From assembly GCA_943356495.1 (NCBI GenBank), contig CALRFF010000002.1:12596-76595 (forward strand): DNA of 64,000 bases, in the 5' to 3' direction. Positions 26,203-50,392 of this stretch are shown here, in pieces. The translations under genes and the position numbers were made by a program. Source of the stretch: Candidatus Nomurabacteria bacterium (GTDB lineage: Bacteria; Patescibacteriota; Minisyncoccia; Phycocordibacterales; SBAW01). A model generated the notes under the pieces. The model searched no databases. It saw only the letters and a list, made by a program, of their open reading frames with translations, and was not told the DNA's origin. Every line of letters starts with the position of its first letter. Position 1 is the stretch's first letter.

Positions 26203-26220
26203 GCGGGGCTTTTTCTTTTT
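26189..26220 (+). terminator. Rho-independent terminator (stop codon lies in loop)
   Basis: GCCCCGCC acatag GCGGGGC then TTTTTCTTTTT. Confidence 0.85.
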
Positions 26221-26245
26221 ACGTGCTTTCTGTTACAGTTTCACG

Positions 26246-33662: not shown

Positions 33663-33971
33663 ATGACCAAAAATCCTTTTATAAACGCGGGGGCGGCGGC
33701 TGTGTATATCGGGGGAGTGGTGCTGTTCATCAGCTCCTTGCCCGGCCCTGACCCCGACACGGTGCTTATGCCTATCACTATGCTGTCGCTCTTGGTGCTC
33801 TCGGTGCTTGCTATGACATACTTCTTTTTCCTTGTGCCGGTGCAGCTGTATTTCGACGGGCATAAAAAAGAGGCCGTGAGCCTTTTTACACAAACAACGG
33901 CCATCTTCGCCGTCTTTGTGGCCGCGCTCCTCGGCGCACTCTTGTTATTTATTTCCTACTCGACGGTTTAA
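33663..33971 (+). CDS. Small polytopic membrane protein (start uncertain: 33615, 33648 or 33663)
   Basis: Three predicted TM helices; no recognisable domain. Confidence 0.4.
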   Translation: MTKNPFINAGAAAVYIGGVVLFISSLPGPDPDTVLMPITMLSLLVLSVLAMTYFFFLVPVQLYFDGHKKEAVSLFTQTTAIFAVFVAALLGALLLFISYSTV

Positions 33972-35050
33972 TTTGCAAACGGGTTGACCGCGCCGCGGAC
34001 CTCGAAGTGGAGGTGCGAGCCGGTCGAGGCGCCGGTCGAACCGACCTTGCCTATTATTTCGCCCTGATCAACCGACGCGCCGACCGAGGTCGAGACACGG
34101 CTGAGGTGCGCGTAGAGTGTCTGCGTACCATTACCGTGCGACACCACTACATAGTTACCGTAACCGCCGTTCCAACCGCCGCCCGAGCGAGCGACAATAA
34201 CCGTGCCGGCGGCGGCGGCGTACACATTGTTGCCGGTCGGCGCACCGAAGTCGACACCATTCCAACCGTGGAGACCTTGCGTAATGACGCCGCCCTGCAG
34301 CGGGCGGGAGAAGTAGCCGGAGAGCGCCGGGCCCGAGCCGCCTAGGAAAGGTTCCCCGCTCTTAAGTACTTTAGAAATTGCTTTCGTGCGCGCGGTCGCG
34401 GCAACTTGCGCGGCCGTGGGCGGCGCTTCGCCGTTGGGGACAATCACCACATCGCCGACCGCAAGTACGGCATCATCGGCAAGGTTGTTAAACTGCGCTA
34501 TCTCGCCCGCATCGGCTTTGTGCTTTTTAGCAACCGACGCAAGCGTATCGCCTTTGGCTACCGTGTAGCGCACGCCGGTGACCGGCAAAATAATAAGCTG
34601 GTCGCCTTCTTTAATAACACGCGTATTGTTGGCCCAGACAATGGTGTTGACCGTAACACCGAACATTTTGGCAATGCCCGCGAGCGTGTCGCCTTGGTGC
34701 ACGGTGTACACCGAGATGGCAGAGCTTTGCGGCGCATTGGCGATGTCGGCTGCGGTGCCCTCCGGGCCTTCTTGGGGAAGGAGCGCCGAGCCCTCTACTA
34801 CGTTTACCTCGCCGCCGCCGACCGACGGGCTTGGGTCGATGTTAACGGCAGGGGACAAAAGGGGCACCGTCTGTGAGTTGTATGAGCCGCCGGCCGCGCG
34901 CGTCTCGGTCGCCGTGTGCGACAACAAAGAGCCGAGCGAGAAAAAGCTCGCCGCCGCGGCAAACGGGGCGAGCATAGCGTAAGAGGCGCTGGCTACCACG
35001 GCCATATGCACCAATGCTTTTTTGCACTTATGTAGAAAACTTGAGTTCAA
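33968..35050 (-). CDS. LysM-domain M23-family peptidoglycan endopeptidase
   Basis: Two LysM repeats (YTVHQGDTLAGIAKMFGV.., YTVAKGDTLASVAKKH..) then M23 domain with HLHFEV motif. Confidence 0.85.
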   Translation of the reverse strand: MNSSFLHKCKKALVHMAVVASASYAMLAPFAAAASFFSLGSLLSHTATETRAAGGSYNSQTVPLLSPAVNIDPSPSVGGGEVNVVEGSALLPQEGPEGTAADIANAPQSSAISVYTVHQGDTLAGIAKMFGVTVNTIVWANNTRVIKEGDQLIILPVTGVRYTVAKGDTLASVAKKHKADAGEIAQFNNLADDAVLAVGDVVIVPNGEAPPTAAQVAATARTKAISKVLKSGEPFLGGSGPALSGYFSRPLQGGVITQGLHGWNGVDFGAPTGNNVYAAAAGTVIVARSGGGWNGGYGNYVVVSHGNGTQTLYAHLSRVSTSVGASVDQGEIIGKVGSTGASTGSHLHFEVRGAVNPFAN

Positions 35051-37106: not shown

Positions 37107-37832
37107 ATGTTAAAGAAAAAAAGCTTAGGTCAACATTTTTTAAACGCGCAAAGTTATTTGCGTGCCGTTGCCGACGCGGCAGAGATCGCGGCGGGGGAGC
37201 GCGTGCTTGAGATAGGCCCCGGCGAAGGCGCACTGACCGCGGTGTTGCTCGAGCGCGGCGCGCATGTAACCGCTATCGAAAAAGATTCCCGCCTGATACC
37301 CCTGCTTAAAGAAAAATTCGCCGGCAAGAAATTTGAAGTGGTAGAAGACGATGCGTTAATGTATGAACCACAGTTACAAAACTATAAAGTAGTGGGGAAT
37401 ATCCCGTACTATATTACCGGCGCATTACTGAAGAAATTTCTTTCCGGCGAGGTACAGCCGAGCGCCTTAGTGTTCTTGGTACAAAAAGAAGTTGCCGAGC
37501 GCATTGCGCGGTCAACAAAAGAAAGCATTCTCTCGCTTTCGGTAAAAGCATACGGGGAACCTACATATATTAAGACCGTGCCGGCGGGAGCATTTTCTCC
37601 GCCGCCCAAAGTAGACTCGGCGATTCTGCGCGTTACCGGCGTATCAAGAAAAAACTTTGCAGACAAACAGCACGAAGCGCGTTTTTTCGAACTCCTTAAA
37701 AAAGGATTCGGGCAGAAGCGAAAACTGTTGAAATCAAATCTCAAACCCCTGCTCGGCGAACGCGCCGAAGCATTGGGAGCTGTCCGTGCTGAAGATATAA
37801 GCCTAGGGGAGTGGCTAAAGTTGTCGGCTTAA
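37107..37832 (+). CDS. rsmA: 16S rRNA (adenine1518/1519-N6)-dimethyltransferase
   Basis: LGQHFL.. N-terminus, SAM motif LEIGPGEGALT, VVGNIPYYIT; start at MLKKKSLGQHF internal Met. Confidence 0.85.
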   Translation: MLKKKSLGQHFLNAQSYLRAVADAAEIAAGERVLEIGPGEGALTAVLLERGAHVTAIEKDSRLIPLLKEKFAGKKFEVVEDDALMYEPQLQNYKVVGNIPYYITGALLKKFLSGEVQPSALVFLVQKEVAERIARSTKESILSLSVKAYGEPTYIKTVPAGAFSPPPKVDSAILRVTGVSRKNFADKQHEARFFELLKKGFGQKRKLLKSNLKPLLGERAEALGAVRAEDISLGEWLKLSA

Positions 37833-38158
37833 ATACTGACGCCGTCTATTTGTATACGCTGGCCGACAAAAGGTACTTTGCCCACGACACAACCATAGGG
37901 GATATCAGCGACACCCAAAATCTGCTGCGCCACATGGACCGGCGGCAGCCCAATTGTAAGGGGTGTCCATATATAGGTGATAGGAAAGAGCCCTGCAGGC
38001 AAAATTTTAATCCAGACGGCCGGGCCACTAAGGCTCATACACGGAGTAATAGCCAGAATTTTACCCCCAAAGGAGGTCCCGAGCGCCGAAGCGTACAACG
38101 GCACCAAAAGAAGTGCCCCTGCAAGCAATCCGGCAAAAGACACAATGAAGCGATGCAT
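37829..38158 (-). CDS. Small secreted protein (signal peptide with ASA cleavage site, ~85-aa mature, 2 Cys), divergent from the secretion operon
   Basis: MHRFIVSFAGLLAGALLLVPLYASA...; TATAAT exactly 6 nt upstream of its ATG on the minus strand. Confidence 0.5.
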   Translation of the reverse strand: MHRFIVSFAGLLAGALLLVPLYASALGTSFGGKILAITPCMSLSGPAVWIKILPAGLFPITYIWTPLTIGLPPVHVAQQILGVADIPYGCVVGKVPFVGQRIQIDGVSI

Positions 38159-38182
38159 ATTTACATTATATAATGAATACAA
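38159..38182. promoter_or_regulatory. 24-bp divergent intergenic region with palindromic CATTATATAATG serving as -10 element for both the small secreted gene (minus) and the 11-gene secretion operon (plus)
   Basis: TATAAT-N6-ATG on minus; TATAAT-N8-ATG on plus. Confidence 0.5.
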
Positions 38183-39076
38183 ATGAGCCTTCAGACATAC
38201 CTGCCCAGTGCAAAATTTGCCGTCATGGCGGGGGCGATAGCACTCTCGGGCGGGTTAGTGGTAGCGGCGCAGTATGTAACCAACCCCGCGCCCAGTACTG
38301 CGGGGCTTAGCGCCGAAGCGCAGGCGGCCCAAGCGGCGCAGTCGGCAAACTGGCAGCAGGTCTTGCGCGACATAGAGTCCCAGTCGGGTATTAAAGCGCC
38401 CGAGGCGCCCAGTACCGACACGGTTAACGCCCTGCTTACCGCGGCGCAAAGCACTAATCTTACAACCCAAGTAGGCAGAACCTTGCTGGTAAGCCTTAGT
38501 AACGCCAACGCCCAAGGGCTTGGCAGCGATATCCCGACACAAGAGCAGCTCATTGCCGAAGCAACCGCCCAGCTCGACGCGCAAGCAAGCGGGCCGGCAT
38601 ATGCAGTAGGCGATTTGCAGATAACAGTCCAAAGCAGCGCGTCGGTGCGAGCCTATGGCAACGCCATAATGAAGGCACTTAACGCTCACGGCGGCGCGAG
38701 CGCCCAAAACACCTATCTTGCGATAGGCGCTATCACCGACTCCCAAAATGCCGCGGCTATTGCGGAGCTAAAAACAATAGGGGCGGCGTACCGTGCGCTT
38801 GCCGAGGCTATTGCCGAAACCCCCGTACCCCAAACCTACTCTCCGTTGCACCTACAACTCGCCAACGACTTTGCCGCTATCGCCGCAAGCTATCCGGACA
38901 TGCAAACCATGCTCGACGACCCACTGCGCGGACTTGCGGGGGTGCAGCGCTACAGCGCTCTTATTGACGAAGCGAGGCGCGTGTTAACAAACATCGCTCA
39001 GTTATTGAGTAAAGACGGTATACTTTTCAGTAAAGACGAGCCAGGCGCTGCCTGGAGCGGCTTGCTTGCCACGTAA
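38183..39076 (+). CDS. Operon gene 1: membrane-anchored Ala/Gln-rich protein of unknown function
   Basis: N-terminal TM helix (AVMAGAIALSGGLVVAA), 297 aa, no recognised domain. Confidence 0.55.
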   Translation: MSLQTYLPSAKFAVMAGAIALSGGLVVAAQYVTNPAPSTAGLSAEAQAAQAAQSANWQQVLRDIESQSGIKAPEAPSTDTVNALLTAAQSTNLTTQVGRTLLVSLSNANAQGLGSDIPTQEQLIAEATAQLDAQASGPAYAVGDLQITVQSSASVRAYGNAIMKALNAHGGASAQNTYLAIGAITDSQNAAAIAELKTIGAAYRALAEAIAETPVPQTYSPLHLQLANDFAAIAASYPDMQTMLDDPLRGLAGVQRYSALIDEARRVLTNIAQLLSKDGILFSKDEPGAAWSGLLAT

Positions 39077-39081
39077 CTTTC

Positions 39082-41046
39082 ATGAACCGACGAACCCTTA
39101 TCACTATCCTGATCGCGGTCCTTGTGGCCGTCGTCATCGGGGCGCTGTGGTTGTGGTTTTTTAGAGGGGTCGGGACCGCGCCAGCGCCGCAAACAGGCTC
39201 CTTCGGCACCGGACAAACCCGCAATACCGGAACCACCGGCGCAAGCACCACGCCCACCAACATACCGAGCTCTATCGGACAGACGACTTCTACGGGAGGG
39301 TCAGTTACCCAAAGCGGCATTTATGTTTCGGGTATAACCGGCGGCGGCGCAGGCACCACCACAGGCGCCGCTGCGGTGCCCGGCGTTAGTTGGCTGGCGG
39401 GGGGCGCGGGCGGGATAAGCGGCGGATCGGGTACCGCATTTAACCCCAGCACCATAAACCAACTTAACAACGGACAGGTGGGCGGGAGCGTTAATGTGCT
39501 GGGCACCTTTACTACCCCGGGCGGGAGCAGCTCCGGCGGGGGAGGTCTCGGCATCGGCGGCTCGGCGGCCATTATCGCCGGCACTGCGGTCGCTTGCACC
39601 GCATTTTTACTGGGCGGAGCCGCCGGCATGTTTACCAGCTCGTCGTTTGTCGCCGTACAAGTTAACGCACCCACCGACAACAATAAAAAGTTTATGGACT
39701 GCATCGCGCGCACTATTGCGCGCGCGGCGATACAGCAAATAACGGCAAGCGTCGTCAACTGGATAAACTCCGGATTTAACGGCAAGCCCTCCTTTGTCAC
39801 CAACTACCAAAGCTTTTTTGCGAACGTGGCCGACCAAGCGGCGGGAGAGTTTATAAAAACGCAGACCAACTTTGCGCCGTACTGCACCCCGTTCCGCACG
39901 CAAATACAAATAGCGCTCGCCCAAAGCTACGCGCGCCGCAACAACGCGCAGTCGTGTACCCTTTCTACTTTATTAAGCGGTACAGGCATAAACCTATTCG
40001 GTAAAAACACGGGGGGCACTACCGGTTGGGGAAATTTTATCTCCTTTACCACCGTACCGAGCAACAACCCCTACGGCTCCTACATGAGCGCGCAGGCACA
40101 ACTGCAAAGCACGCTCTTGCAAGCAAACCAAAATGCTAATCGCAACATTTCTACCGGCGGGTTCCTTAACTTCCAGCAGCCGTACGATTGCCAAGCCACC
40201 GTGCCGCAGGCGGGAGAAACAGCGGGCACTAATGGCGGCGGAGGTGCGGGGGGCAGTATAAACTTCGGCGGCTCATCACAAAACTACGGCTATTCCTGCC
40301 CGTCCAACTGCAAGTGCAAAATTACGACTCCCGGAGGCATTATCGAAAGTTCATTAAGCAAAACGCTCAGCGTGTCGCAAGACACGCTTACGCAGGCGGG
40401 CATCTCGGGCAGTTTTGACGCTATTATCAGCGCGCTTATAAGCCAATTGATGACCCGCGCGCTCCAAGGCGGCGTGTCTAACCTTAGCGGCACCAGCGGC
40501 TATGCTTCGTACTACCTGACCGCCGACCAGCAGGCGGCGCAAACAAACGGGCAAGGGCTCCTTACCCAACTGCAAGGGTTGGTGGTAATGGCGCAGCAGT
40601 TCGGACAAAACAAGCAGGGCAGCGCGCAGGATATACAAAATGCGCAGAGCCAACTTAATGGCCTTGCCAACTGCTGGCAAACGGCCGCGTCCTCGACGGC
40701 ACTTACCGATACCAAACAAAATATCGCCTTCAACAACGCGCAGAACGCGCTTGCAACATTGCGCTCTTACGACGGGCAAATTGACAGTATCAACGGCCAG
40801 ATAACCCGGGCCAACGCGGCCGTGGCGCTGTTGCAAGACCTACAGACTCGTACGCTCGGCGTCGGTTCGACGGCAGAGGTGTCGGCTATACAAAACGCGC
40901 TTGCCGCCGCCGAGGCGCGGGGCGGTATCATAGGACAAGCGGACATTACCACCGCGGCGCAAGACCGCACGACTCTGCAATCGCAGCTAAACTCTCTCAG
41001 CAGAACAGTAGACTCGCAGCTCTCCCAATGCTATGCGTTCCAATAA
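39082..41046 (+). CDS. Operon gene 2: large surface protein with TM anchor, Gly/Thr-rich linker, Cys-containing globular region and C-terminal Gln-rich coiled coil
   Basis: 654 aa; N-terminal TM (LITILIAVLVAVVIGALWLWFF); paired cysteines; no recognised domain. Confidence 0.6.
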   Translation: MNRRTLITILIAVLVAVVIGALWLWFFRGVGTAPAPQTGSFGTGQTRNTGTTGASTTPTNIPSSIGQTTSTGGSVTQSGIYVSGITGGGAGTTTGAAAVPGVSWLAGGAGGISGGSGTAFNPSTINQLNNGQVGGSVNVLGTFTTPGGSSSGGGGLGIGGSAAIIAGTAVACTAFLLGGAAGMFTSSSFVAVQVNAPTDNNKKFMDCIARTIARAAIQQITASVVNWINSGFNGKPSFVTNYQSFFANVADQAAGEFIKTQTNFAPYCTPFRTQIQIALAQSYARRNNAQSCTLSTLLSGTGINLFGKNTGGTTGWGNFISFTTVPSNNPYGSYMSAQAQLQSTLLQANQNANRNISTGGFLNFQQPYDCQATVPQAGETAGTNGGGGAGGSINFGGSSQNYGYSCPSNCKCKITTPGGIIESSLSKTLSVSQDTLTQAGISGSFDAIISALISQLMTRALQGGVSNLSGTSGYASYYLTADQQAAQTNGQGLLTQLQGLVVMAQQFGQNKQGSAQDIQNAQSQLNGLANCWQTAASSTALTDTKQNIAFNNAQNALATLRSYDGQIDSINGQITRANAAVALLQDLQTRTLGVGSTAEVSAIQNALAAAEARGGIIGQADITTAAQDRTTLQSQLNSLSRTVDSQLSQCYAFQ

Positions 41047-43519
41047 ATACATAATTTATTTTTTTGCGCTCGTGGCGCTTATAGTGGCCCCCGTGAGCCT
41101 GACTTCTTACAAGGGCACCTTAAAAATTGAGCCTGCAAAAGTCCAGGCTGCCGTTATTTGCAAACAAGGGGGGAGTTTTACTTCTTTTCCGAGCACTTGT
41201 CCCTTTGGCTTTACCAATGCTTCAGAAAGCGAGTCCGCTGCTTATACAAACAATCCCGCGAACGCAGCCGACTTGGCCCGTACTAAAAAAGCGGAGACTG
41301 ACCCATATGGCACAGCCAACAATGCTTGTTCAGGCCTCACCGGATGTCTTGCTTGGGTTATGTATTGGATAGGCCCCGGCTTTGCTTCGTGGGTAGCCTC
41401 AATAGCAGCTTTTTTCTTTAATTACATAGTCAAGATTTCTCTCAACAGCACCGCCTATGCGCTCGGGTTTTTGACCACCAGCTGGAGTTTAGTACTCAAC
41501 CTCGCCAACATGTTCTTTATTTTTATTCTCATATATACCGCGTTCGTAATTATGCTGAAGGCGGAGACCACGCGCACCATGCAAACACTGGCGTGGGTTA
41601 TCGCAATCGCGCTGGTGGTTAACTTTAGCTTTTTCTTTACGCGCGTAGTGATAGACGCGGGGAATATTCTTGGCGTACAGTTTTACAACGGCATCATCGC
41701 ACAACCTAATATAGCAGGGGTGACTATCACCAACGAGCCAAATGCGCCTGTTGATATCACACGCGGCATCATGCAAGCGCTCGGGGTAGAAAAACCACTT
41801 ACACAACAAGGATTTACAAACGCACAGGCAGTAACAGGCAACAATGCATGGAGCACTCTACTTGTTTTAACAGTCGTATTTCTCTCTACCGCGGTCATGT
41901 TTTGGATGCTCGCGCTTGGACTGATAATGATTGCCATCAAGTTTCTTATCCGTATTGTAGGATTATGGCTCGTGCTTATCGCCTCACCGATCGCTTTTGT
42001 TTCTAAAACACTACCAAAAACCCAACATTTTTTTGAGATGTGGTTGCGAACGCTGGTAAGCTTTGCCTTCTATCCGGCGATATTTCTCTTTATGTTCTAC
42101 GTACTCAACATGTTTGTGGCGGACCTTGCAGGCAACAAATTGTTTGCGGCACTCTCAAGTAAGCAGGGCATGGCAACAGATTTAAATCCATTGCCGCTTA
42201 TCGCCCAACTTGCGGAAATATTTATCCGCATGGGATTCCTTATCGTCATGATGTACATCATGCTTAAGGTTGCCGATTGGATTATGGACCAAGCCGGCGG
42301 TATGGCGGGCACGATTATGAACAAAGCGAGTGGGGCTATTTTGGGCGGCGGCTTCCGTGGAGCCGGAGTTGCACTTCGTGCCACGTCAGCGACTGGTGCA
42401 TTTGCTGGACGTAACGTAGGAGGTCGCGGAGCATTTGCGACACTACAAAATTCAACAATTAAATCTTGGGAAGGACAGAGTGGCCTGCGCGGTACTTTGT
42501 GGCGCGGCCTCACAGGTGTCAGCAAAGGTACTTGGGATATACGTAACGCCCCTGGTGGCAGCATATTGAAAAAAGCCACCTCAAAAATCGTAGGCGATGT
42601 CAATGTTGGTACTGCAAGTAAACGTAACTTTGCCAAAACAGTCGCCGACAAGGCCAAGCGTGACGAAGAACGTGGAAAGACCCTTAAAGCGTCCGAAGGG
42701 GAAATCTGGAATGCACAACAAGACTTCCAAAATAGGTATGATACACGAAACGGCCCAGGTTCCTACACAACCAGAATAAACGACCTACAGACACGTATGC
42801 GAATGGCGCGGGAGGAGGCTGTGCGACAGCACGCTAGAGCAGCTCTCGACCCAGCAGGAGCGGCAGGATTTAAAGCACTCGCTAGAACTAACGAGAATGA
42901 AGAAAGACGGCTGGCTGGAGAACTTAAAAACCATACCGAGCAAGGTAAGAAAATCGCAGAAGATTTTGCAAAAACACGCATAATGCAATTTGCCGATAGG
43001 CTCGATAAGAGAAATGTTGAGGGTAATATGTTTAATCCGTCATGGGGTCATGTCGAAGGCGCTGCGCGACTCAGAAAACTGGTTGAAGGAAAAACTTCTA
43101 CCCAAAAAATTAAGGATGCTGTGAAAGAAGCCACTGAAGAAGATGGTGATGATCACCCGCCAGCGGGAGGTGGCGGTGCAGGAGGTGGAGGACATGGCCC
43201 CACAGCACCGGCAGGAGGAGCACATGGTGCGGGCGGAGGAGGTTCGGCCTTTACCAAAGCGGCCGGTACTGAGCATGCGCTTGCCGACGCAATAAGAGAG
43301 GCCAGCGAAAAAACACATAAAGACTTTAAGAATTTGGAGAAAAGTCTGCATGAAGCTGCGGGGAGTAACGGACCTGCCCATGTTCCCACAACAGAGCCCA
43401 CTCTCAATGTTAAAAAAATGAGCCAAAACATCGCCGACCGTCTTGGCGAACATCTGCAGCCGGGTAATACGCCGCCTACTACCCCCAAGCCGCCCGAAAA
43501 ACCGGAAGAGAAGAAATAA
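41033..43519 (+). CDS. Operon gene 3: VirB6/TrbL-like polytopic membrane protein with signal peptide, extracellular Cys domain, ~8 TM helices and Gly-rich cytoplasmic tail
   Basis: 828 aa; architecture (periplasmic N-domain, multi-TM core, long C-tail) is the VirB6/PrgH pattern; assignment by topology not motif. Confidence 0.5.
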   Translation: MRSNKYIIYFFALVALIVAPVSLTSYKGTLKIEPAKVQAAVICKQGGSFTSFPSTCPFGFTNASESESAAYTNNPANAADLARTKKAETDPYGTANNACSGLTGCLAWVMYWIGPGFASWVASIAAFFFNYIVKISLNSTAYALGFLTTSWSLVLNLANMFFIFILIYTAFVIMLKAETTRTMQTLAWVIAIALVVNFSFFFTRVVIDAGNILGVQFYNGIIAQPNIAGVTITNEPNAPVDITRGIMQALGVEKPLTQQGFTNAQAVTGNNAWSTLLVLTVVFLSTAVMFWMLALGLIMIAIKFLIRIVGLWLVLIASPIAFVSKTLPKTQHFFEMWLRTLVSFAFYPAIFLFMFYVLNMFVADLAGNKLFAALSSKQGMATDLNPLPLIAQLAEIFIRMGFLIVMMYIMLKVADWIMDQAGGMAGTIMNKASGAILGGGFRGAGVALRATSATGAFAGRNVGGRGAFATLQNSTIKSWEGQSGLRGTLWRGLTGVSKGTWDIRNAPGGSILKKATSKIVGDVNVGTASKRNFAKTVADKAKRDEERGKTLKASEGEIWNAQQDFQNRYDTRNGPGSYTTRINDLQTRMRMAREEAVRQHARAALDPAGAAGFKALARTNENEERRLAGELKNHTEQGKKIAEDFAKTRIMQFADRLDKRNVEGNMFNPSWGHVEGAARLRKLVEGKTSTQKIKDAVKEATEEDGDDHPPAGGGGAGGGGHGPTAPAGGAHGAGGGGSAFTKAAGTEHALADAIREASEKTHKDFKNLEKSLHEAAGSNGPAHVPTTEPTLNVKKMSQNIADRLGEHLQPGNTPPTTPKPPEKPEEKK

Positions 43520-43540
43520 TTACCCCTAACCACAAGGCTT

Positions 43541-44092
43541 ATGGACACTACCGTTGCAGCACAAATAGAAAAACGCCTTGCCGAGCTCCCTGAAGACGTC
43601 CGCGCGGCTGTTATGTCGGTCGAGTGGGAAGAAAAGGTACGACAGATAGCCGGCAAACACGCCTTGCATATAGACCAGACCGGCGCGCTGGGCGACACCA
43701 CTCTTATGGCGATGCTCGGGTTCTTCGATATGGCCGACTTTCCGGTCCATCTCACTGAGGAGCTTAAAATACCTACTGATCAAGCCGCCGCCATAGGGGG
43801 AGAGATAACGGCTGAGGTCTTCAGACCCATACGCGAGTCGCTCAAAAAGTTTACCGAAGGAAACAAAGCGACTATACCCGCTCCGACGGCACCCAAACCC
43901 GACCTTGTAGCCGCCGAGGCCATGTTACAAGCCAAAACAGTGAGTGCACCCGCTCCGGCGGTGCCCGCCCAACCCGTAGTACCCCAAAAAACTGTCCCTA
44001 CAGCGGCGCCTGTCATGCCGCCAATAGCAAAACAAGAGCCGCCGAAGCCCGGCGCGTATGCCGCCGACCCGTACCGCGAGCCGCCGCTATGA
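43541..44092 (+). CDS. Operon gene 4: soluble protein with Pro-rich C-terminus, unknown function
   Basis: 183 aa, no TM, no recognised domain. Confidence 0.5.
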   Translation: MDTTVAAQIEKRLAELPEDVRAAVMSVEWEEKVRQIAGKHALHIDQTGALGDTTLMAMLGFFDMADFPVHLTEELKIPTDQAAAIGGEITAEVFRPIRESLKKFTEGNKATIPAPTAPKPDLVAAEAMLQAKTVSAPAPAVPAQPVVPQKTVPTAAPVMPPIAKQEPPKPGAYAADPYREPPL

Positions 44093-44116
44093 AAACCTAC
44101 GCTATACTTGTAAGTA

Positions 44117-44557
44117 ATGGCGCAGTACCAAGTACCCCAGTTTATTGAGGTTGAGGATAAGATTTTCGGCCCCCTGACGCTCAAGCAATTTATCTATCTT
44201 GCCGGCGGGGCGGGGATATGTCTTATGTTCTTTACGCTTCTGCCGTTTTGGCTGATGTTTATCTTGTCTGTACCGGTTATGTCCTTTTCGGCGGCACTCG
44301 CCTTTTACAAAATAAACGGGCGGCCGTTTATCGTGGCGCTTGAGCATGCGGCATCATATACCTTTGGCAGCAAGCTTTATTTGTGGAAGCAGCGCGAGGC
44401 AAAAGCCAGTACCGAAGTGCAAAACGCCCCCGCGACAGCTGCGCCGGTGCCCAGACTCTCTAACAGCAAGCTTAAAGATCTGTCGTGGTCGCTCAATATT
44501 AAAGACCGCAACCAAATGGGCGTCACGTCGACGGAGCGCAGCGGGTTTGAAGTCTAA
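44117..44557 (+). CDS. Operon gene 5: PrgI-family (VirB3-like) two-TM protein
   Basis: N-terminus YQVPQFIEVEDKIFGPLTLKQFIYLAGG followed by two TM helices, the PrgI/VirB3 signature; sits immediately upstream of VirB4 as in Gram-positive T4SS. Confidence 0.6.
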   Translation: MAQYQVPQFIEVEDKIFGPLTLKQFIYLAGGAGICLMFFTLLPFWLMFILSVPVMSFSAALAFYKINGRPFIVALEHAASYTFGSKLYLWKQREAKASTEVQNAPATAAPVPRLSNSKLKDLSWSLNIKDRNQMGVTSTERSGFEV

Positions 44558-44562
44558 TTACT

Positions 44563-45216
44563 ATGGCTACCAATACCTCTCCACAAGTTACGGCGCAGGC
44601 AACACAGGACTTTGTGCCTATAAAAGAGGTGCGCGACGGCATTGTAATACTTAAAGACGGCTCCCTACGGTCACTACTTATGGCGTCGAGCATCAACTTG
44701 GCGCTCAAGTCGCAGGACGAACAACAGGCGATTATCGGGCAATTTCAAAATTTTCTTAACTCGCTGGAGTTTACAGTGCAGTTTTTTGTCCAAAGCCGCG
44801 AGTTGGACATACGCCCCTATATCGCCCTGCTTGAAGAGCGGTTGGTGGCCGAGCTTGATGACCTGATGAAGATACAGATACGCGAGTACATTACCTTCAT
44901 TAAAGACTTTACCGAGCGGGCCAATATTATGACTAAAAACTTTTTTATCGTCGTGCCGTACGACCCCGCGCTTATCGCGCGCGGTACGGGCATCGCATCG
45001 TTTATCCCCGGGAGAGGCAGTTCTTCGACCACGCTTACCGACGAGCAGTTTGAGCAGTACCGCACCCAGCTCGAGCAGCGTATCGCCGTTATCGAGCAGG
45101 GGCTGGTGCGCACGGGCGTGCGCGTAGTGGGCCTAGGGACCGAAGAGGTGATAGAGCTCTTTTACAAACTCTTTAACCCCGGCGAACTAGAGAAGCCGCT
45201 GCAGCTCGTTAAATAA
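44563..45216 (+). CDS. Operon gene 6: VirB4 N-terminal-domain-like protein (separate ORF)
   Basis: FVPIKEVRDGIVILKDGSLRSLLMASSINLALKSQDEQQAIIGQF matches the extreme N-terminal region of Gram-positive VirB4/TrsE-type ATPases; stop TAA at 45214-45216, next ATG at 45218 in another frame. Confidence 0.55.
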   Translation: MATNTSPQVTAQATQDFVPIKEVRDGIVILKDGSLRSLLMASSINLALKSQDEQQAIIGQFQNFLNSLEFTVQFFVQSRELDIRPYIALLEERLVAELDDLMKIQIREYITFIKDFTERANIMTKNFFIVVPYDPALIARGTGIASFIPGRGSSSTTLTDEQFEQYRTQLEQRIAVIEQGLVRTGVRVVGLGTEEVIELFYKLFNPGELEKPLQLVK

Positions 45217-45217
45217 T

Positions 45218-47035
45218 ATGAAAGGCTTTGACTTCTTAAAATACAAGCACGCGCCCGAGCAACCGTCGCAGATGGCGCCTATACTCCCCGAGCAGATATA
45301 CAAGCAGGGAGTCTTGGAGCTGCAAGACGTCATAGCCCCCAGCGCGCTTAAGATAACCCCGCGCGAGATAAACTTAGGCGACAAAATCGCCCGCACCTTC
45401 TTTGTGATGTCGTACCCGCGCGTCCTTACCGACAGCTGGTTCGGGCCAATCATCAACCTCGACCGCGTGCTCGATGTGTCTATTTTTATCCACCCCATCG
45501 ACTCGGCCGAGATACTGAAGAAGTTTCAAAAAAAAGTTGCCGAGGTACAAAGCCAGATTATGGCTCGGGAAGAAAAGGGTATGGTCCGCGACCCGATACT
45601 CGACACCGCCTACAAAGACCTCGAAGACTTGCGCGACCAGCTGCAGCAGGCGCAGGAGCGCATCTTTGACGTCGGCGTGTACATCACCATCTACGGCACG
45701 ACGGTCGAAGACCTGGACAAGGCCGAGTCCGAAATTAAGTCCATGCTCGAGTCGCGTCTGGTGTACGTAAAGCCGGCGCTCTTCCAGCAAGAGCAGGGCT
45801 TTAAGTCGGTGCTGCCGCTGGGCCACGACGAGCTCGGCGTAAATTCAAAGCTTAACTCTTCGCCGCTTTCGAGCATCTTCCCGTTTGTGTCCTTTGACCT
45901 CACTTCTGACAAGGGGATTCTCTACGGCGTTAACCGTCACAACGCGTCGCTCGTGCTCTTTGACCGCTTTAGCCTCGAGAACTACAACTCCGTTATCTTT
46001 GCCAAATCGGGCTCGGGCAAAAGCTATGCGACCAAGCTCGAAATACTGCGTACCCTGATGTTTGATACCGAGGTTATTGTTATCGACCCCGAGCGCGAGT
46101 ACGAGTTCCTTAGCCAAACGGTAGGGGGGCGGTACTTCAACATTTCGCTCAACTCAGAAAACCATATCAACCCGTTCGACCTGGCCGCCCCGCGCGAGGA
46201 CGAGTCGCCCGCCGACGTATTGCGCAGCAACATTGTGGCGTTGGTAGGTATGTTCCGCATTATGCTCGGCGGGCTCACCCCCGAGGAGGACGCCATCATG
46301 GACAAGGCAATTACCGAAACCTACGCGCTCAAAGATATTACGGTGGACAGCAACTTTGCCGAGATAGAGCCGCCGCTCCTTTCTGACTTCGAATTGGTGC
46401 TTGCGGGCATGCAGGGCAGCGAATCGCTGGTGCAGCGCCTTAGTAAGTACACCAAAGGCACGTGGGCCGGGTTTATTAACCAGCCGACCAACGTCGACTT
46501 AAACAAAAAGTTCGTCGTCTTTTCGGTGCGCGACATGGAAGACGACCTTAAACCGGTCGCGATGTATCTGATTACGCATTACATATGGAACGCGGTGCGC
46601 AAAAATCTTAAAAAGCGTCTGCTGGTTATCGACGAGGCATGGTGGATGATGAAGTCCGACGACACGGCGTCGTTTCTATACGGCATGGCCAAGCGCGGAC
46701 GCAAATACTTTCTTGGGCTTGCAACCATTACCCAAGACGTAGATGACTTTTTAAAGTCGCCGTACGGCCTGCCGATGATTACCAACTCTTCTATCCAAAT
46801 ACTGCTCAAGCAGTCGCCCACAACCATCGACACGCTGCAAAAAACCTTTAACCTTTCCGACGAAGAAAAATATCTACTGCTTGAGTCTGACGTAGGAGAG
46901 GGGATATTTTTTGCGGGGCTTAAGCATGTTGCCATCAAAGTCATAGCCTCGTACACCGAAGACCAGATAATTACCTCCGATCCCTCCCAAGTACTGGCGC
47001 TTAAGCGCGCACGGACCGAAGGCTCGGCACAATAA
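45218..47035 (+). CDS. Operon gene 7: VirB4-family type IV secretion ATPase
   Basis: Walker A AKSGSGKSYATK, Walker B LLVIDEAWWMM, VirB4 middle-region motifs (RTFFVMSYPR, DVSIFIHPI); 605 aa. Confidence 0.85.
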   Translation: MKGFDFLKYKHAPEQPSQMAPILPEQIYKQGVLELQDVIAPSALKITPREINLGDKIARTFFVMSYPRVLTDSWFGPIINLDRVLDVSIFIHPIDSAEILKKFQKKVAEVQSQIMAREEKGMVRDPILDTAYKDLEDLRDQLQQAQERIFDVGVYITIYGTTVEDLDKAESEIKSMLESRLVYVKPALFQQEQGFKSVLPLGHDELGVNSKLNSSPLSSIFPFVSFDLTSDKGILYGVNRHNASLVLFDRFSLENYNSVIFAKSGSGKSYATKLEILRTLMFDTEVIVIDPEREYEFLSQTVGGRYFNISLNSENHINPFDLAAPREDESPADVLRSNIVALVGMFRIMLGGLTPEEDAIMDKAITETYALKDITVDSNFAEIEPPLLSDFELVLAGMQGSESLVQRLSKYTKGTWAGFINQPTNVDLNKKFVVFSVRDMEDDLKPVAMYLITHYIWNAVRKNLKKRLLVIDEAWWMMKSDDTASFLYGMAKRGRKYFLGLATITQDVDDFLKSPYGLPMITNSSIQILLKQSPTTIDTLQKTFNLSDEEKYLLLESDVGEGIFFAGLKHVAIKVIASYTEDQIITSDPSQVLALKRARTEGSAQ

Positions 47036-47037
47036 TT

Positions 47038-47625
47038 ATGAAAGGCTTTTTACTTATACTTTTTGCACTGTTCATAGACGGCTTACAGGCCATGCTTATG
47101 CTTGTCTTTACGGTCATGCAGTTTGTCACGCCTATTGGAGGTGGAATTGCCGGTGCTTTGGCGGCCGGGCAGTATTGCTGGAGTATCTCTTCAGGTATTT
47201 TTAGCGGCGCTTACAGTTGGGCCTCATGCGCGCTAACTGGTGGGGTTGTAGGTGCAGGGGTGAGTGCTTTTGCTATACCTATAGGCGTCGCTGTCGATGT
47301 AGCCATAACTATTACCTTCGGTGGCGTGTTGGTTATGGTGCTGGCATGGATGGGGATGTTTTACCCCGGTACCGTATTGGGAGTCTTTTTTGGAGAGTCT
47401 ATTCCGATTATTAACATCTTGCCCGGCTGGACACTGATGACCTGGCGCTGCTTGCACAAAAAGAATCAGGAAGAAAAAGATAAGCGTAAAGGTTTTAGCG
47501 GAGCAATGCCGGGAGTGTCGCTCAACGCTGTGCCGGGCCGCGAGGACACTGCGTTTGAAAAAGCCCAATGGGCCACGCGTAGAATCAACGACTCCCGCCA
47601 GGTAGACGGTATACGTCATGCATAA
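47038..47625 (+). CDS. Operon gene 8: Gly-rich polytopic membrane protein
   Basis: 195 aa, 4-5 predicted TM helices; unknown family. Confidence 0.5.
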   Translation: MKGFLLILFALFIDGLQAMLMLVFTVMQFVTPIGGGIAGALAAGQYCWSISSGIFSGAYSWASCALTGGVVGAGVSAFAIPIGVAVDVAITITFGGVLVMVLAWMGMFYPGTVLGVFFGESIPIINILPGWTLMTWRCLHKKNQEEKDKRKGFSGAMPGVSLNAVPGREDTAFEKAQWATRRINDSRQVDGIRHA

Positions 47626-48640
47626 CTTCCGCCCTATATTTTTTATACTTGCCGCCCTGCTGTATGCGGGTACCGTACACGCGCAAGGCTCGGGCGTGGA
47701 CCCGGTGCAGTACATTATTGCGCCGGAAACTCCGGGGCCCAATGCTCCGGTGCAGATAACCGTACAAGGGGTGGGGAGCTTCCTCGGTGACGCAACCATC
47801 ACCTGGAGCGTGGGCGGCAAAACGGTTGCGAGCGGCACGGGTTTAGCCGCGTTTAGCTTTACCACCGGCGAGCTGGGCACGCAGAGTATAGTGCGCCTTA
47901 CTATCAGCTCGGCAACGCAAGGGCTTATTACGCGAACCTTTACCTTTACGCCGTCGGTCATCAACCTTGTATGGGAGGCGGACACCTCGGTACCGCCGCT
48001 TTTTGCCGGCAAGGCGCTGTACAGCGCAGGCTCTCCGCTGCGGGTGGTGGCCTTTCCGACCGTTATTGTGGCGGGTAAAAAAGTTGCCGCCGAAAGTCTG
48101 TCGTACCAATGGTCGGTAAACGAGCAGCCGGTGCCCGCGTTGTCGGGCACCGGCAAACATATACTGACCTACACGGGCGACCAGTTACAAAGCGCCGAGG
48201 TGGTGTCGGTGGAGGTATATTTTGGGAGTCTAAAGGTCGGGCGCGCCGAAATTGCCGTACCCGCAAGTGAAACACAGGTGCTGTTGTACCACAAAGATGC
48301 ACTGCGCGGAGTCGTGTGGGACAACAGTATGCCCGCAAGCATTGCGCTCGGAGGAAAAGAGCTTACGCTGCAGGCACAGCCGTACTTTTTTGCCAACACC
48401 GCATTAAAAGGCGGCGCGGTGTCATGGACATGGACACTCAACGACGAGGTGGTTACCGGCCCCGACTCGGCAAAAGGCCTGCTTACCCTGCGCCAAACCG
48501 GCGAAGGGAAGGGGAGCGCGTCACTTACGGTAGAGCTGCAAAACCAAAACTCATCGCAGTTGGTGCAGTCGGCAAAAACGATACTTAGTATTATCTTCGG
48601 CAGCGCGCAATCGGGCTTTTCTTCCTTCTTCGGCCTATGA
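47618..48640 (+). CDS. Operon gene 9: secreted beta-rich protein
   Basis: Signal peptide (LAALLYAGTVHAQG), 340 aa, Thr/Ser/Val-rich. Confidence 0.55.
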   Translation: MHNFRPIFFILAALLYAGTVHAQGSGVDPVQYIIAPETPGPNAPVQITVQGVGSFLGDATITWSVGGKTVASGTGLAAFSFTTGELGTQSIVRLTISSATQGLITRTFTFTPSVINLVWEADTSVPPLFAGKALYSAGSPLRVVAFPTVIVAGKKVAAESLSYQWSVNEQPVPALSGTGKHILTYTGDQLQSAEVVSVEVYFGSLKVGRAEIAVPASETQVLLYHKDALRGVVWDNSMPASIALGGKELTLQAQPYFFANTALKGGAVSWTWTLNDEVVTGPDSAKGLLTLRQTGEGKGSASLTVELQNQNSSQLVQSAKTILSIIFGSAQSGFSSFFGL

Positions 48641-49146
48641 AATATCTAACCAAAGAAAAAATACAGGGAATACTGCTGGCGGGGATTACATACACTCCGC
48701 TTGAGCCCTTCCCCAACGCCACGACGGCCACATACAACTCACTCGGCCTGTATCTTAATTTTGTGTTTAAGATTTTGCTTTCTTTGGGGGCCATGGTGGC
48801 AGTAGTAACGCTCGTATTCGGAGGCATAGCCTACATGGTGTCCGAAATTGCGGACAAAAAAACCGAGGCAAGAAAACGCATACAGGCGGCACTCCTCGGG
48901 CTCTTTCTGCTACTGACTTGCTGGCTCATTTTGTATGAAATCAACCCAAATCTGGTTAAATTCTGTCTACCCGGTCTCGACGCCGCTTGCCAGGGGGCTA
49001 TGGCTCCCTCCACTGCGCGCCCTGCCGCCCAGCCTTCGACCGCAAGTGTTGCCCCGAAGCCAGACAACGCAGACAAGGCTGATTGTGAGTCGGTAGCCGG
49101 CAGAACCTTGCATGCAACCGGTCCGGGCACGTGGGAATGCAGATAA
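48637..49146 (+). CDS. Operon gene 10: VirB2/TrbC-like pilin candidate
   Basis: Two hydrophobic helices flanking a short charged loop (SEIADKKTEARKR), the T-pilin topology, preceded by a leader region; 169 aa with Cys-containing tail. Confidence 0.45.
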   Translation: MKYLTKEKIQGILLAGITYTPLEPFPNATTATYNSLGLYLNFVFKILLSLGAMVAVVTLVFGGIAYMVSEIADKKTEARKRIQAALLGLFLLLTCWLILYEINPNLVKFCLPGLDAACQGAMAPSTARPAAQPSTASVAPKPDNADKADCESVAGRTLHATGPGTWECR

Positions 49147-49150
49147 CATT

Positions 49151-50392
49151 ATGAACAAAACGTACCTATATTACATCGGGGGGACCATAACAGCAGTAGT
49201 AATTTCAGGCGTACTTGCGTTCTTTATTTTCTCGAACGGCCCGGCGACACAAACACAAGGACCGGCCGGTAGTGGTTTCGGCTCAACTGAAAATACAACA
49301 ACTAACGCCGGGGCCTCCGGCACTAACGGAGGGGCAGGGGGAGTGTCACAAAATACCGGCGCGCAAACCTCTCAGCAAAAAATATTCAAAATTTCAGACG
49401 GCCCGGTCGCAGGCGCCACGTTTGTACAGACACTGCGCCCCACGACAACCCTGGCGCGCTTTGTAATGGCAGAAAATGGTCACACGTTCGACCTGGTACT
49501 CGACTCGCAAGGCGCGGTTCCTAAAGCGCTATCCAATACCACTATCCCCGGCGCCCAGAGTACGCTTTGGGTAGAAAAAGGCAATGCCACTGTATTGCAA
49601 TACCTCGACGGTACAACGCCTAAAACTGTGTACCTTGGATTTGCAACAAGTAGCGCTTCTACCAACCCGATCGTGCGCCTGCAGTTTTATCCAGACGGCA
49701 TCGTGTCGTTTGCGGGTTCGCCCGACGGAACGCAGGTTGCCTATCTGTTGCGCACCGCAAGAGGGGTGGACGCCTACACAGCAAAAACGGACGGCACCCA
49801 AGGCAAACGGCTCTTTTCGCTCCCGCTCTCAGAGGTGCAGCTGCGCTGGCCGGCGCAAGGCACCTTGCTTGCACATACCAATGCCGCTGTCGGCGTGCCG
49901 GGGATTGCCTTTGCCATAGACGCAAAAACGGGCGTAGTAACCCCGCTCGTATATGCGCCGGGGCTGACCGCAACAGCCGACCTCACTTTTGACCATGTGA
50001 TGTACCAAACCACACCAGCTAGTTCCGGTATGCGGGCAACCTACTCGCGCGAGGTCAGCTCGGGCACCAACCGTGCGCTTTCATTTGATCCCTACCCGGA
50101 GAAATGTATACAGAGCCCGCGCGCCGCAACCGTACTGTATTGTGCAACTCCGCTCGACTACGTAGCTACAACCTACCTTGATATGTGGCACCAGGGTGCA
50201 GCGAGCACTGCAGACAGTGTTATTTCATTTGACCTTGTGGCAGGCACCTCGCAGATACTCGCAACGCCGGGTGGGGCCGAAGGGGGAGTGGCTACCGATA
50301 TGTTGCAGCTCGCAGCCTCGGGAGACGGGCGCTATCTGCTGTTTGTATCAAAATACGATCGCTCCCTGTGGGGCGTTAGGCTCCTGCCGTAG
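49151..50392 (+). CDS. Operon gene 11: membrane-anchored protein with Gly/Thr linker and TolB-like beta-propeller (PD40-type repeats)
   Basis: N-terminal TM, SPDGTQVAYL and SGDGRYLLFVS PD40-like repeats. Confidence 0.5.
   Translation: MNKTYLYYIGGTITAVVISGVLAFFIFSNGPATQTQGPAGSGFGSTENTTTNAGASGTNGGAGGVSQNTGAQTSQQKIFKISDGPVAGATFVQTLRPTTTLARFVMAENGHTFDLVLDSQGAVPKALSNTTIPGAQSTLWVEKGNATVLQYLDGTTPKTVYLGFATSSASTNPIVRLQFYPDGIVSFAGSPDGTQVAYLLRTARGVDAYTAKTDGTQGKRLFSLPLSEVQLRWPAQGTLLAHTNAAVGVPGIAFAIDAKTGVVTPLVYAPGLTATADLTFDHVMYQTTPASSGMRATYSREVSSGTNRALSFDPYPEKCIQSPRAATVLYCATPLDYVATTYLDMWHQGAASTADSVISFDLVAGTSQILATPGGAEGGVATDMLQLAASGDGRYLLFVSKYDRSLWGVRLLP

Follow-up and report, generated by a model that had tools for sequence, protein, structure and literature searches.

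The question raised by positions 38183-50392 of the DNA analysed here (a stretch of 64 kb, called the window in the following) is which kind of machine this operon encodes, and what the machine may do for its owner. The original prediction was a minimal, VirB4-centred T4SS and a candidate novel subtype, serving DNA uptake or cell-cell contact rather than conjugation. The organism is an ultrasmall bacterium of the Patescibacteria (CPR), class Paceibacteria, and is close to Adlerbacteria. Among the best 120 of 8000 scored VirB4 matches, all are at least 91% identical to the VirB4 of the operon, and the names given are exclusively Patescibacteria, Paceibacterota, Adlerbacteria or Nomurabacteria. 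The operon was compared with the loci of 80 related species-level genomes (Paceibacteria-type MAGs); the presence of individual genes was counted on 42 full-length loci.

Architecture of the operon and its T4SS core

Eleven closely packed ORFs are found on the plus strand, all of them where the original prediction had placed them. The junctions from g1 to g11 measure, in this order, +5, -14, +21, +24, +5, +1, +2, -8, -4 and -35 (or +4) nt, which bears out the proposed 0-25 nt spacers and overlaps. The GC content matches the surroundings as claimed (51-58% for the operon, 49-59% for the window). The term "minimal" is misleading: ten of the eleven genes, present in 36-42 of the 42 full loci, are nearly universal in the class, and besides VirB4, PrgI/VirB3, a VirB6-type protein and a VirB2-like pilin, seven proteins without a T4SS family are encoded. 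The operon is an elaborated system and not a stripped-down one.

The protein g7 (45218-47035, 605 aa) comprises the middle and the C-terminal ATPase domains of VirB4. It scores 383.8 bits against the NCBIfam model conju_CD1110 (cutoff 325), matches Pfam P-loop_TraG (3e-27) and the solved VirB4 C-terminal domain 4ag5 (1.9e-41), and carries the Walker A and Walker B motifs at residues 262-269 and 468-473. By these profile searches it is the bona fide VirB4 that had been proposed. The alignment with a Clostridium plasmid VirB4 covers residues 205-754 of the latter (32% identity, 6e-88). The preceding gene g6 (44563-45216, 217 aa) encodes a VirB4 N-terminal domain of the TrsD type as a separate protein; its score against NCBIfam TrsD (6.8e-10, 39 bits) is far under the model cutoff of 200, which makes it a distant TrsD relative. 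Further matches of g6 are to positions 2-117 of the CD1110 model of VirB4 and, with its family profile, to residues 20-194 of the VirB4 of the Clostridium plasmid, a protein of 783 aa (hhalign 85.7%, E 5.5e-6). A single full-length plasmid VirB4 is thus colinear with the pair g6/g7, which shows the protein to be split into TrsD and an ATPase body. The TrsD of staphylococcal pGO1/pSK41 is likewise a free-standing VirB4 N-terminal homologue next to the ATPase gene; g6, however, is distant from it, universal across the bacterial class and 56-85% identical among the related loci.

The PrgI/VirB3 homologue g5 (44117-44557, 146 aa) possesses two membrane helices, exceeds the cutoff of Pfam PrgI (1.9e-10, 41.6 bits, cutoff 27) and is 44-70% identical across related loci. 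Its family was predicted correctly, its position directly upstream of VirB4 was not, as the 217-aa g6 lies between them. The polytopic membrane protein g3 (41033-43519, 828 aa) has 8-9 hydrophobic segments and a hydrophilic C-terminal tail of ~330 aa ("extended VirB6"), and is strongly conserved among related loci. Its own sequence gives no significant VirB6 match and no direct Pfam match, whereas 4 of 34 positional orthologues match Pfam TrbL/VirB6 (best 6e-5); therefore, the VirB6-type assignment is transitive and positional. On the basis of these segments and orthologues the predicted VirB6-like protein holds, and its site upstream of prgI agrees with monoderm T4SS operons.

Judged by sequence, g3, g5 and g6/g7 constitute the inner-membrane core of a monoderm (MPF-FATA-type) T4SS. 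The operon additionally encodes a VirB2-like pilin, as assigned by profile: g10 (48637-49146, 169 aa), which consists of two hydrophobic helices with a basic loop between them and a Cys-containing C-terminal extension, scores above the cutoff of Pfam T4SS_pilin PF18895 (1.1e-8, 35.4 bits, cutoff 26.6), in line with the expected two-helix pilin-like protein. MPF-FATA modules (CD1110/CD1115-type), exemplified by Clostridium perfringens pSXP-169_2 (locus L081), have a VirB4 of the same family at the identity given above, and share with the operon PrgI/VirB3 upstream of VirB4 and the lack of outer-membrane VirB7/9/10. In contrast to the operon, the plasmid has MobC, relaxase, VirD4 and an SLT hydrolase adjoining virB4, and its VirB4 is one 783-aa protein instead of TrsD plus a 605-aa ATPase. 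Moreover, MPF-FATA systems lack the VirB2-like pilin, as do monoderm conjugation systems (PMC12857230).

Surface and family-less proteins

The proteins g1, g2, g4, g8, g9 and g11 are assigned to the machine by conserved synteny only. g1 (38183-39076, 297 aa) has a single membrane helix at the N-terminus and, on the outside, an Ala-rich domain that is probably helical; it belongs to no family, with no match in Pfam, NCBIfam or PDB-profile searches, and is found in 38 of the 42 full-length loci. Bacterial TSP3 calcium-binding repeats occur in 9 of 34 orthologues (best 3.5e-10). In the membrane-anchored surface protein g2 (39082-41046, 654 aa), a linker rich in Gly, Thr and Ser, a conserved "WINSGFNG" domain with Cys and a helical bundle at the C-terminus can be distinguished; its orthologues bear lectin, Ig and fn3 domains. 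g4 (43541-44092, 183 aa), which is without a membrane segment and without a match in Pfam, NCBIfam or a PDB profile search, occurs in 41 of the 42 full-length loci; its ~100 N-terminal residues are conserved, a Pro-rich linker comes next, and the motif DPYREP at the C-terminus is invariant.

The gene set varies in g8 (47038-47625, 195 aa), which encodes a small, Gly-rich, polytopic membrane protein and was detected in 16 of the 42 full loci. The exported or N-terminally anchored g9 (47618-48640, 340 aa) is predicted to consist of three tandem Ig/fn3-like beta-sandwich domains. In one locus (L003) g8 and g9 form one ORF, and g8-g9 and g9-g10 appear as single proteins in other genomes; these apparent fusions may stem from frameshifts or faulty assembly. 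g11 (49112-50392, 426 aa; 413 aa if the ATG at 49151 is used), present in all 42 full loci, is predicted to carry a beta-propeller of the TolB/PD40 type, joined by a linker to a membrane helix at the N-terminus. The likeness to TolB is weak but consistent and upholds the proposed propeller: the NCBIfam TolB match is 8.9e-5, the twelve best of fourteen PDB matches of the family profile are TolB (8e-4 to 1e-2), and orthologues match PD40 and DPPIV_N.

Chromosomal setting and missing components

The order uvrD-ksgA-[g1..g11]-yidC-dnaA-dnaN is kept in the 80 related genomes. In these loci VirB4 is 76-94% identical, which is more than DnaA (48-86%) and DnaN (33-74%). No integrase, tRNA or repeat boundary adjoins the operon edges; thus the claim that such boundaries are missing is correct at the edges, while a XerC/D-type tyrosine recombinase is located 13.7 kb upstream in the window. 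The four tRNAs are each at least 17.6 kb upstream. Since the same housekeeping flanks recur in 80 genomes and element boundaries are lacking, the operon is part of the core chromosome, as had been argued: it is fixed beside oriC, inherited vertically and conserved across the class Paceibacteria.

Among about 55 window proteins, no Pfam match to VirD4/T4CP, relaxase, VirB8, SLT or VirB11 was found; tblastn with the VirD4, relaxase, MobC and SLT of a plasmid likewise gave nothing, and the 80 loci contain no relaxase, T4CP, MobC or SLT up to 10 kb from virB4. The predicted absences are therefore real for the window, but two related enzymes have to be noted. A T2SSE-superfamily ATPase (7569-9050, minus strand) is PilB/GspE-like and not VirB11, as its MshEN domain indicates, and an M23+LysM peptidoglycan hydrolase (33968-35050) is encoded on the opposite strand 3 kb upstream of the operon. 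Monoderm T4SSs normally require VirB8-like and VirB1-like parts, and none were found in the 64-kb window.

The local absence of relaxase and T4CP makes a conjugation module unlikely, as originally proposed. An ordinary conjugative or integrated mobile element, whose relaxase, oriT and coupling protein reside elsewhere in the genome, is highly improbable and already close to refuted. In its favour, the VirB4 is a member of the CD1110 family, which is typical of conjugative elements in Firmicutes, and the inspection covered 64 kb of the genome; in addition, VirD4-like genes are common in Patescibacteria and in most of these genomes sit far from virB4 (Quinonero-Coronel 2025, PMC12102498), so that a distant T4CP may exist. 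Against such an element argue the constant flanks and gene order, a VirB4 more conserved than DnaA, the matching GC content, the operon edges and an identity to plasmid VirB4s of only 29-35%. Of 3,035 Patescibacteria genomes, only 103 were found to have a relaxase (PMC12102498). Unlike MPF-FATA conjugative modules, the operon is fixed in the chromosome.

Comparison with the known Patescibacteria T4SS

The operon is a real 11-gene T4SS, but it is a correct rediscovery and not a new kind of machine, since the system was described already in papers of 2023-2025, which also give it monoderm (MPF-FATA) ancestry (PMC10633639, PMC12102498); the supposed novel subtype is this published clade. Among 3,035 Patescibacteria genomes, 2,417 were reported to have VirB4; TrsD, PrgI/VirB3, VirB6 and PF18895 pilins accompany it, a relaxase does not, and the Paceibacteria T4SS was placed near dnaA/ksgA/rnpA/rpmH (PMC12102498). 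The site next to dnaA is common to the operon and the clade, and its neighbours ksgA, yidC, dnaA and dnaN are those reported. In Southlakia epibionticum a homologous cluster, including its pilins, is essential for epibiotic growth (Wang 2023, PMC10633639). This cluster (SEML1_0005-0019) shares the order VirB6 - x - PrgI - TrsD-like - VirB4 - ... - exported Ig-like protein; both have PF18895 pilin(s) and neither has a relaxase or T4CP. It differs in having six arrayed pilin genes instead of one, two VirB6 instead of one, and lysozyme/peptidase genes after virB4 as well as an NTF2/VirB8-like gene, both of which the operon lacks. For g1, g2, g4, g8 and the g11 propeller no counterpart is stated in Southlakia, and the 2025 survey lists them as unannotated genes only (PMC12102498).

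Possible function

The predicted comEC, recJ, rnhA and comM-like genes were all located (1680-5475 and 31442-32995). They carry little weight, because each is set apart from the operon by housekeeping genes: comEC/recJ/rnhA lie on the opposite strand at a distance of 33-36 kb, and comM lies upstream at about 5 kb. A machine importing DNA as in Helicobacter ComB or archaeal Ced, which would feed recombination or nucleotide salvage, is rather unlikely, even though ComB and Ced are precedents for T4SS-type DNA import, CPR bacteria cannot make nucleotides, and neither relaxase nor T4CP is found near virB4 in the window and the 80 loci. T4SS loci of the class ABY1 adjoin comF, recG and radA, and the survey's authors propose import of DNA or other macromolecules (PMC12102498). 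Helicobacter pylori ComB likewise combines VirB2/3/4/6 with the lack of relaxase and coupling protein in a genome with comEC; however, it is diderm and has ComB7-10 (VirB7-10), of which no equivalents were found in this operon. The match of g7 to CedB is weak and local (1.9e-8, 33 bits), far under the 700 bits that the model requires. For a type IV pilus route, a PilB-type ATPase is encoded in the window itself. In Southlakia, the Patescibacteria relative studied by experiment, competence and the essential role of the T4SS come apart: competence relies on type IV pili together with ComEC, and comEC can be deleted whereas the T4SS is essential, so that any import would be ComEC-independent. The DNA-uptake idea, which is already published, is thus weakened by the sole experimental system.

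A pure pilus or adhesion organelle, with the VirB4 core reduced to a pilus-assembly motor and the pilus, together with g2, g9 and g11, attaching the cell to its host while no substrate passes, is improbable too. In studied systems pilus biogenesis is driven by the ATPase VirB4, the surface-protein orthologues bear lectin/Ig modules, and no coupling protein that could recruit substrates was found in the window. The presence of a pilin, absent from monoderm conjugation systems (PMC12857230), also fits. But the large extended VirB6 channel protein is kept and strongly conserved, CPR bacteria already adhere by type IV pili, and protein secretion is retained by T4SSs that have no T4CP, such as Ptl and Brucella VirB (PMC12102498).

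New details are the three Ig-like domains predicted for g9, the TolB-like propeller predicted for g11, and the recognition of g1 and g2 as surface proteins anchored in the membrane; calcium-binding repeats are found in orthologues of g1, lectin/Ig domains in those of g2. Very probably, the operon encodes a monoderm-type Patescibacteria T4SS, a putative pilus or conduit with surface proteins for macromolecule exchange between epibiont and host. The VirB3/VirB4/VirB6 complex would use ATP to extract pilin from the membrane, and the pilin would assemble into a short conjugative-type pilus or conduit. Surface proteins specific to the class, namely g1, g2, g9 and g11, would carry this structure through the wall onto the host bacterium, g1 and g2 presumably as anchored helical proteins, the latter with lectin/Ig modules that seem swappable among relatives. 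The machine may then move macromolecules between epibiont and host; exchange of proteins or other macromolecules at the host interface would rank before ComEC-linked DNA uptake, and conjugation would come last.

Operon layout and genomic position

The operon noticed in the original prediction was borne out with minor corrections: eleven ORFs, designated g1 to g11 in their order, lie on the plus strand at 38183-50392, and their junctions are overlaps of up to 35 nt or gaps of up to 24 nt. As had also been stated, the operon (51-58%) resembles the remainder of the window (49-59%) in GC content. The operon is located between uvrD/pcrA-ksgA on one side and yidC-dnaA-dnaN on the other; therefore, it adjoins the replication origin. 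This chromosomal position near dnaA, dnaN and ksgA, with no relaxase gene in the neighbourhood, is the one that characterizes the Patescibacteria clade of type IV secretion systems (T4SSs). Scanning for promoters and terminators was uninformative, as 5 promoter-like sites were found and 10 were expected.

Between ksgA and g1, a gap of 350 nt contains a divergent ORF of 117 aa (37829-38182, minus strand) with a signal-peptide-like N-terminus. By means of tblastn, relatives were detected in 15 related loci (31-43% identity); where both genes could be located, these relatives lie near ksgA and upstream of g1. The ORF may encode a small secreted protein using the operon's promoter region.

A monoderm-type core with a split VirB4

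The protein g7 (45218-47035, plus strand, 605 aa) possesses a Walker A motif at residues 262-269 and a Walker B motif at residues 468-473. In Pfam it matches P-loop_TraG (3e-27), AAA_10 and DUF87, and it reaches 383.8 bits with the NCBIfam model "VirB4-like conjugal transfer ATPase, CD1110 family" (conju_CD1110), whose cutoff is 325. Further matches are TrwK of R388 and 4ag5, the solved C-terminal domain of VirB4 (1.9e-41). With these motifs and the CD1110 score, g7 is a VirB4 of the monoderm (CD1110/MPF-FATA) type, and the assignment made from the sequence was upheld. The accompanying statement that a PrgI protein is encoded directly upstream of VirB4 is wrong, because g6 (217 aa) intervenes between prgI (g5) and virB4 (g7).

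The product of g6 matches NCBIfam TrsD (6.8e-10), which places a TrsD-like gene next to virB4. Positions 2-117 of the CD1110 VirB4 model are matched by g6, whereas the match of g7 starts only at position 175. As a reference we used the 783-aa VirB4 of the Clostridium perfringens plasmid pSXP-169_2, which carries a conjugative module: the g6 family aligns with residues 20-194 (hhalign, 85.7%, E 5.5e-6), and g7 with residues 205-754 (32% identity, 6e-88). As judged from these alignments, g6 and g7 are colinear with one monoderm VirB4; consequently, the ATPase is split. That the two might be paralogous copies was ruled out, as BLASTP of g6 versus g7 gave no match.

Two further components, a PrgI/VirB3 protein and a VirB2-like pilin, are encoded close to virB4: g5 belongs to the PrgI family (Pfam, 1.9e-10) and g10 to T4SS_pilin (PF18895; Pfam, 1.1e-8), both above the gathering score. 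VirB4, PrgI and the PF18895 pilin all exceed their model cutoffs, and the identification of the operon as a T4SS holds. For the other eight operon proteins, no significant Pfam match was obtained. One of these, g3, comprises 828 aa with 8-9 hydrophobic segments and a hydrophilic tail of about 330 aa. The protein itself gave no direct VirB6 family match; among its positional orthologues, 4 of 34 matched Pfam TrbL/VirB6 (best 6e-5), and topology and position fit VirB6. Due to these orthologue matches and its position upstream of prgI, g3 is transitively assigned as a putative extended VirB6. When the families of g3, g1 and g4 were compared by hhalign with the unannotated proteins of the Clostridium conjugative module, no relative was found. 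In summary, the operon encodes a core of the monoderm type, made up of VirB3, a VirB4 in two pieces and a putative VirB6, together with a VirB2-like pilin.

Conservation of the locus

With each GTDB species represented by one genome, a scan yielded 80 loci with virB4, and the gene order uvrD-ksgA-g1...g11-yidC-dnaA-dnaN recurs throughout them. Per-gene presence was counted by family detection in the 42 loci having full 10-kb flanks: g11 was found in all 42, g3, g4 and g5 in 41 each, g9 in 39, g1 in 38, g6 and g10 in 37 each, g2 in 36, and g8 in 16. Databases contain thousands of VirB4 relatives; the best 120 listed share 91% identity or more, and the organism names given among these are all Patescibacteria, Paceibacterota, Adlerbacteria or Nomurabacteria. 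VirB4 of the 80 loci showed 76-94% identity, compared with 29-35% to plasmid VirB4s. Together with the organism names, this comparison of identities is strongly consistent with a place of g7 in the monophyletic Patescibacteria clade of VirB4. In the same loci, the values for DnaA (48-86%), DnaN (33-74%), UvrD and YidC were lower. Purifying selection at this core-genome locus close to the origin is strong.

No other protein encoded in the neighbourhood is as strongly conserved as VirB4, and such constraint is unusual for a secretion ATPase.

Absence of conjugation parts and of element boundaries

It had been proposed that the apparatus belongs to the core genome and does not serve conjugation, and both readings stood. 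Housekeeping flanks are conserved across the related loci; the distribution is not patchy, and no integrase, att or tRNA boundaries were found. Judged from this synteny, the operon is a vertically inherited core-genome operon and not an integrated element, and on the same grounds a reading as ICE or plasmid was rejected. The nearest recombinase is a tyrosine recombinase of the XerC/D type (23640-24521, minus strand, 293 aa), 13.7 kb from the operon, and four clustered tRNA genes (Gly, Pro, Gly, Arg; 17542-20586) are at least 17.6 kb away. Because of these distances (at least 13.7 kb), neither constitutes an element boundary.

That the operon is a conjugation module is very unlikely, as neither the 64-kb window nor the 10 kb on either side of virB4 in the 80 loci yielded a relaxase, a T4CP (VirD4/TcpA) or an oriT. 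Pfam scans of the approximately 55 window proteins revealed no VirD4/T4CP, relaxase, VirB8, VirB11 or SLT; they did reveal genes that the original prediction had left out, namely those of a PilB/GspE-type ATPase, an M23/LysM hydrolase and the XerC/D-type recombinase. Similarly, when VirD4, relaxase, MobC and SLT of the plasmid served as tblastn queries, neither the window nor the 80 loci gave a match; the positive control, the plasmid VirB4, was detected. None of the 11 operon proteins matched NTF2 or, as a VirB1-type wall hydrolase would, SLT, CHAP or lysozyme. The NTF2/VirB8 fold is absent from the models of g2 and g9, and a check of g1 and g4, by sequence profile only, did not detect it either.

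Surface proteins and proteins without family

Family sequence profiles of g1, g2, g3, g4, g9 and g11 were run against all PDB chains. Only weak TolB matches (g11) and Ig-like matches (g9) resulted; nothing was found for g1, g2, g3 and g4. The 261 homologues of g2 are all unnamed or hypothetical proteins, and the few organism names given are Patescibacteria. In an AlphaFold model of residues 181-654, a C-terminal bundle of long helices is predicted very confidently (pLDDT 97), and a helical domain containing invariant cysteines moderately so. Orthologues bear F5/8-type-C lectin (7 of 34), Ig-like, fn3 and DUF4141 domains. Since most of them have a single N-terminal transmembrane segment with the conserved domain directly following, and since several long ones carry their extra length C-terminal to the conserved core, we read g2 as a probable membrane-anchored surface protein with lineage-variable binding modules. 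A second hydrophobic stretch would place the conserved domain in the cytoplasm; this topology was rejected because of the single N-terminal segment of most orthologues, the invariant cysteines in the domain and the C-terminal extra length. DUF4141 (Pfam) was matched by 2 of 34 orthologues (1.3e-5); this family is that of a protein from a Bacteroides conjugative transposon whose gene lies between traJ and traG, and these matches may indicate a distant link of g2 to a T4SS component of another class.

In the single-pass protein g1, the outside domain is rich in Ala; TSP3 calcium-binding repeats occur in 9 of 34 orthologues. For g9, the model consists of three tandem Ig/fn3-like domains (confident, pLDDT 88.8), for which no specific structural relative was found, and g11 shows a weak but consistent similarity to TolB/PD40 propellers. 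No transmembrane segment is present in g4, whose C-terminal DPYREP motif is invariant and for which family and profile searches found no relative. The small, Gly-rich polytopic g8 is the sole variable member of the operon. In one related locus (L003:11812-13446), g8 and g9 read as one ORF of 545 aa, and in a protein from relatives (P0332), g9 and the pilin g10 read as one of 544 aa. These apparent fusions would fit a functional link; they could also be frameshift or assembly artefacts at overlapping junctions.

Comparison with described systems

Much of the diversity of bacteria belongs to the Patescibacteria, which live attached to other microbes. McLean is said to have described a T4SS in Saccharibacteria in 2020. 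For the same group, Wang et al. 2023 (PMC10633639) reported a T4SS whose origin-adjacent cluster SEML1_0006-0019 is essential for epibiotic growth according to Tn-seq; this cluster includes essential pilins and is without recognisable coupling or relaxase proteins. Quinonero-Coronel et al. 2025 (PMC12102498) found VirB4 in 2,417 of 3,035 Patescibacteria genomes, forming a monophyletic clade nested in MPF-FATA. In their survey TrsD is widespread and the most abundant component, PrgI/VirB3, VirB6 and PF18895/VirB2-like pilins are widespread too, relaxases occur in only 103 genomes, T4CP-like genes are mostly far from virB4, and the T4SS of Paceibacteria is located near dnaA, dnaN, ksgA, rnpA and rpmH. 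In a 2025 review (PMC12857230), the T4SSs of Patescibacteria are listed as the most recent additions to the T4SS superfamily. Thus, every headline feature of the operon is already contained in published papers, and the claim of a novel subtype fails (PMC10633639, PMC12102498).

Compared with the cluster of the Saccharibacteria relative Southlakia epibionticum, the operon has one pilin instead of six and one VirB6 instead of two, and it is without the lysozyme, peptidase and NTF2-like genes found there; g1, g2, g4, g8 and g11 are additions of the Paceibacteria operon. According to PMC12102498, some of the VirB1-like proteins in Patescibacteria contain M23/LysM domains. At 3 kb upstream of the operon, the window encodes an M23 peptidase that has LysM repeats (33968-35050, minus strand); its link to the T4SS is doubtful, because of the 80 related loci only 6 gave a tblastn match to it. 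A family-less ORF of 937 aa (26219-29032, minus strand), antisense to the PNPase gene (26144-28360, plus strand), is almost certainly a spurious ORF of GC-rich DNA.

The proposed role in DNA uptake

The original prediction favoured DNA uptake, pointing to the competence-related genes of the window and to the ComB system of Helicobacter. The genes comEC, rnhA, recJ and comM are indeed present, but do not support the argument, as all of them are set apart from the operon, comEC/rnhA/recJ by 33-36 kb and comM, on the upstream side, by about 5 kb. ComEC (1680-3128, minus strand, 482 aa) has DUF4131 and Competence domains and no match to the metallo-beta-lactamase nuclease domain. About 100 nt of its ORF are shared with the rnhA ORF (3026-3736) upstream, which is why the true start may be later. 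A PilB/GspE-type ATPase with T2SSE and MshEN domains (7569-9050, minus strand) points to a probable type IV pilus system in the same genome, and a type IV pilus route has been shown to mediate competence in Saccharibacteria. In Southlakia, competence requires ComEC and type IV pili, and deletion of comEC is viable while the T4SS is essential; these findings weaken uptake linked to ComEC. ComEC-independent import by the T4SS is possible, and the authors of PMC12102498 favour it.

ComB of the Helicobacter type has a ComB7-10 (VirB7-10) envelope core in addition to ComB2-4 and ComB6, whereas the operon is without a family match to VirB8, VirB9 or VirB10. The archaeal Ced system, consisting of a CedB ATPase and CedA membrane proteins, does not correspond to the operon either: g7 scored 33 bits with the CedB model (cutoff 700), and only a P-loop stretch of 70 residues was matched.

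Proposed function and significance

By analogy with T4SSs that have been studied, VirB4 would be anchored by VirB3, with TrsD as its N-domain, and would power the extraction of pilins and their polymerisation on the VirB6 platform; the surface proteins g1, g2, g9 and g11 would span the wall and contact the host. Among the possible functions, we rank a host-interface transfer machine of unspecified direction first, followed by DNA import, a pilus serving adhesion only and, last, conjugation. A more specific reading, to which we assign a low probability, is that of an essential, ComEC-independent host-to-epibiont import conduit. Here, a surface module specific to Paceibacteria (g1, g2, g9, g11) would take the place of VirB1, VirB8 and the adhesins, and would be linked to the VirB3/VirB4(TrsD)/VirB6 core and a VirB2-like pilus. 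Within this module, g2 would recognise the host or form a VirB5-like tip, and its lectin/Ig modules would be swapped between lineages to match hosts.

To our knowledge, the chromosomal T4SS of Patescibacteria is the only one essential for its own carrier. The operon adds no new kind of system; it is a clean Paceibacteria example, with ten co-conserved genes and a VirB4 more conserved than DnaA, and with it several surface parts specific to the class are described at the level of folds for the first time. These class-specific components constitute the residual value of the finding, and are natural targets for studying how the machine reaches the host cell.
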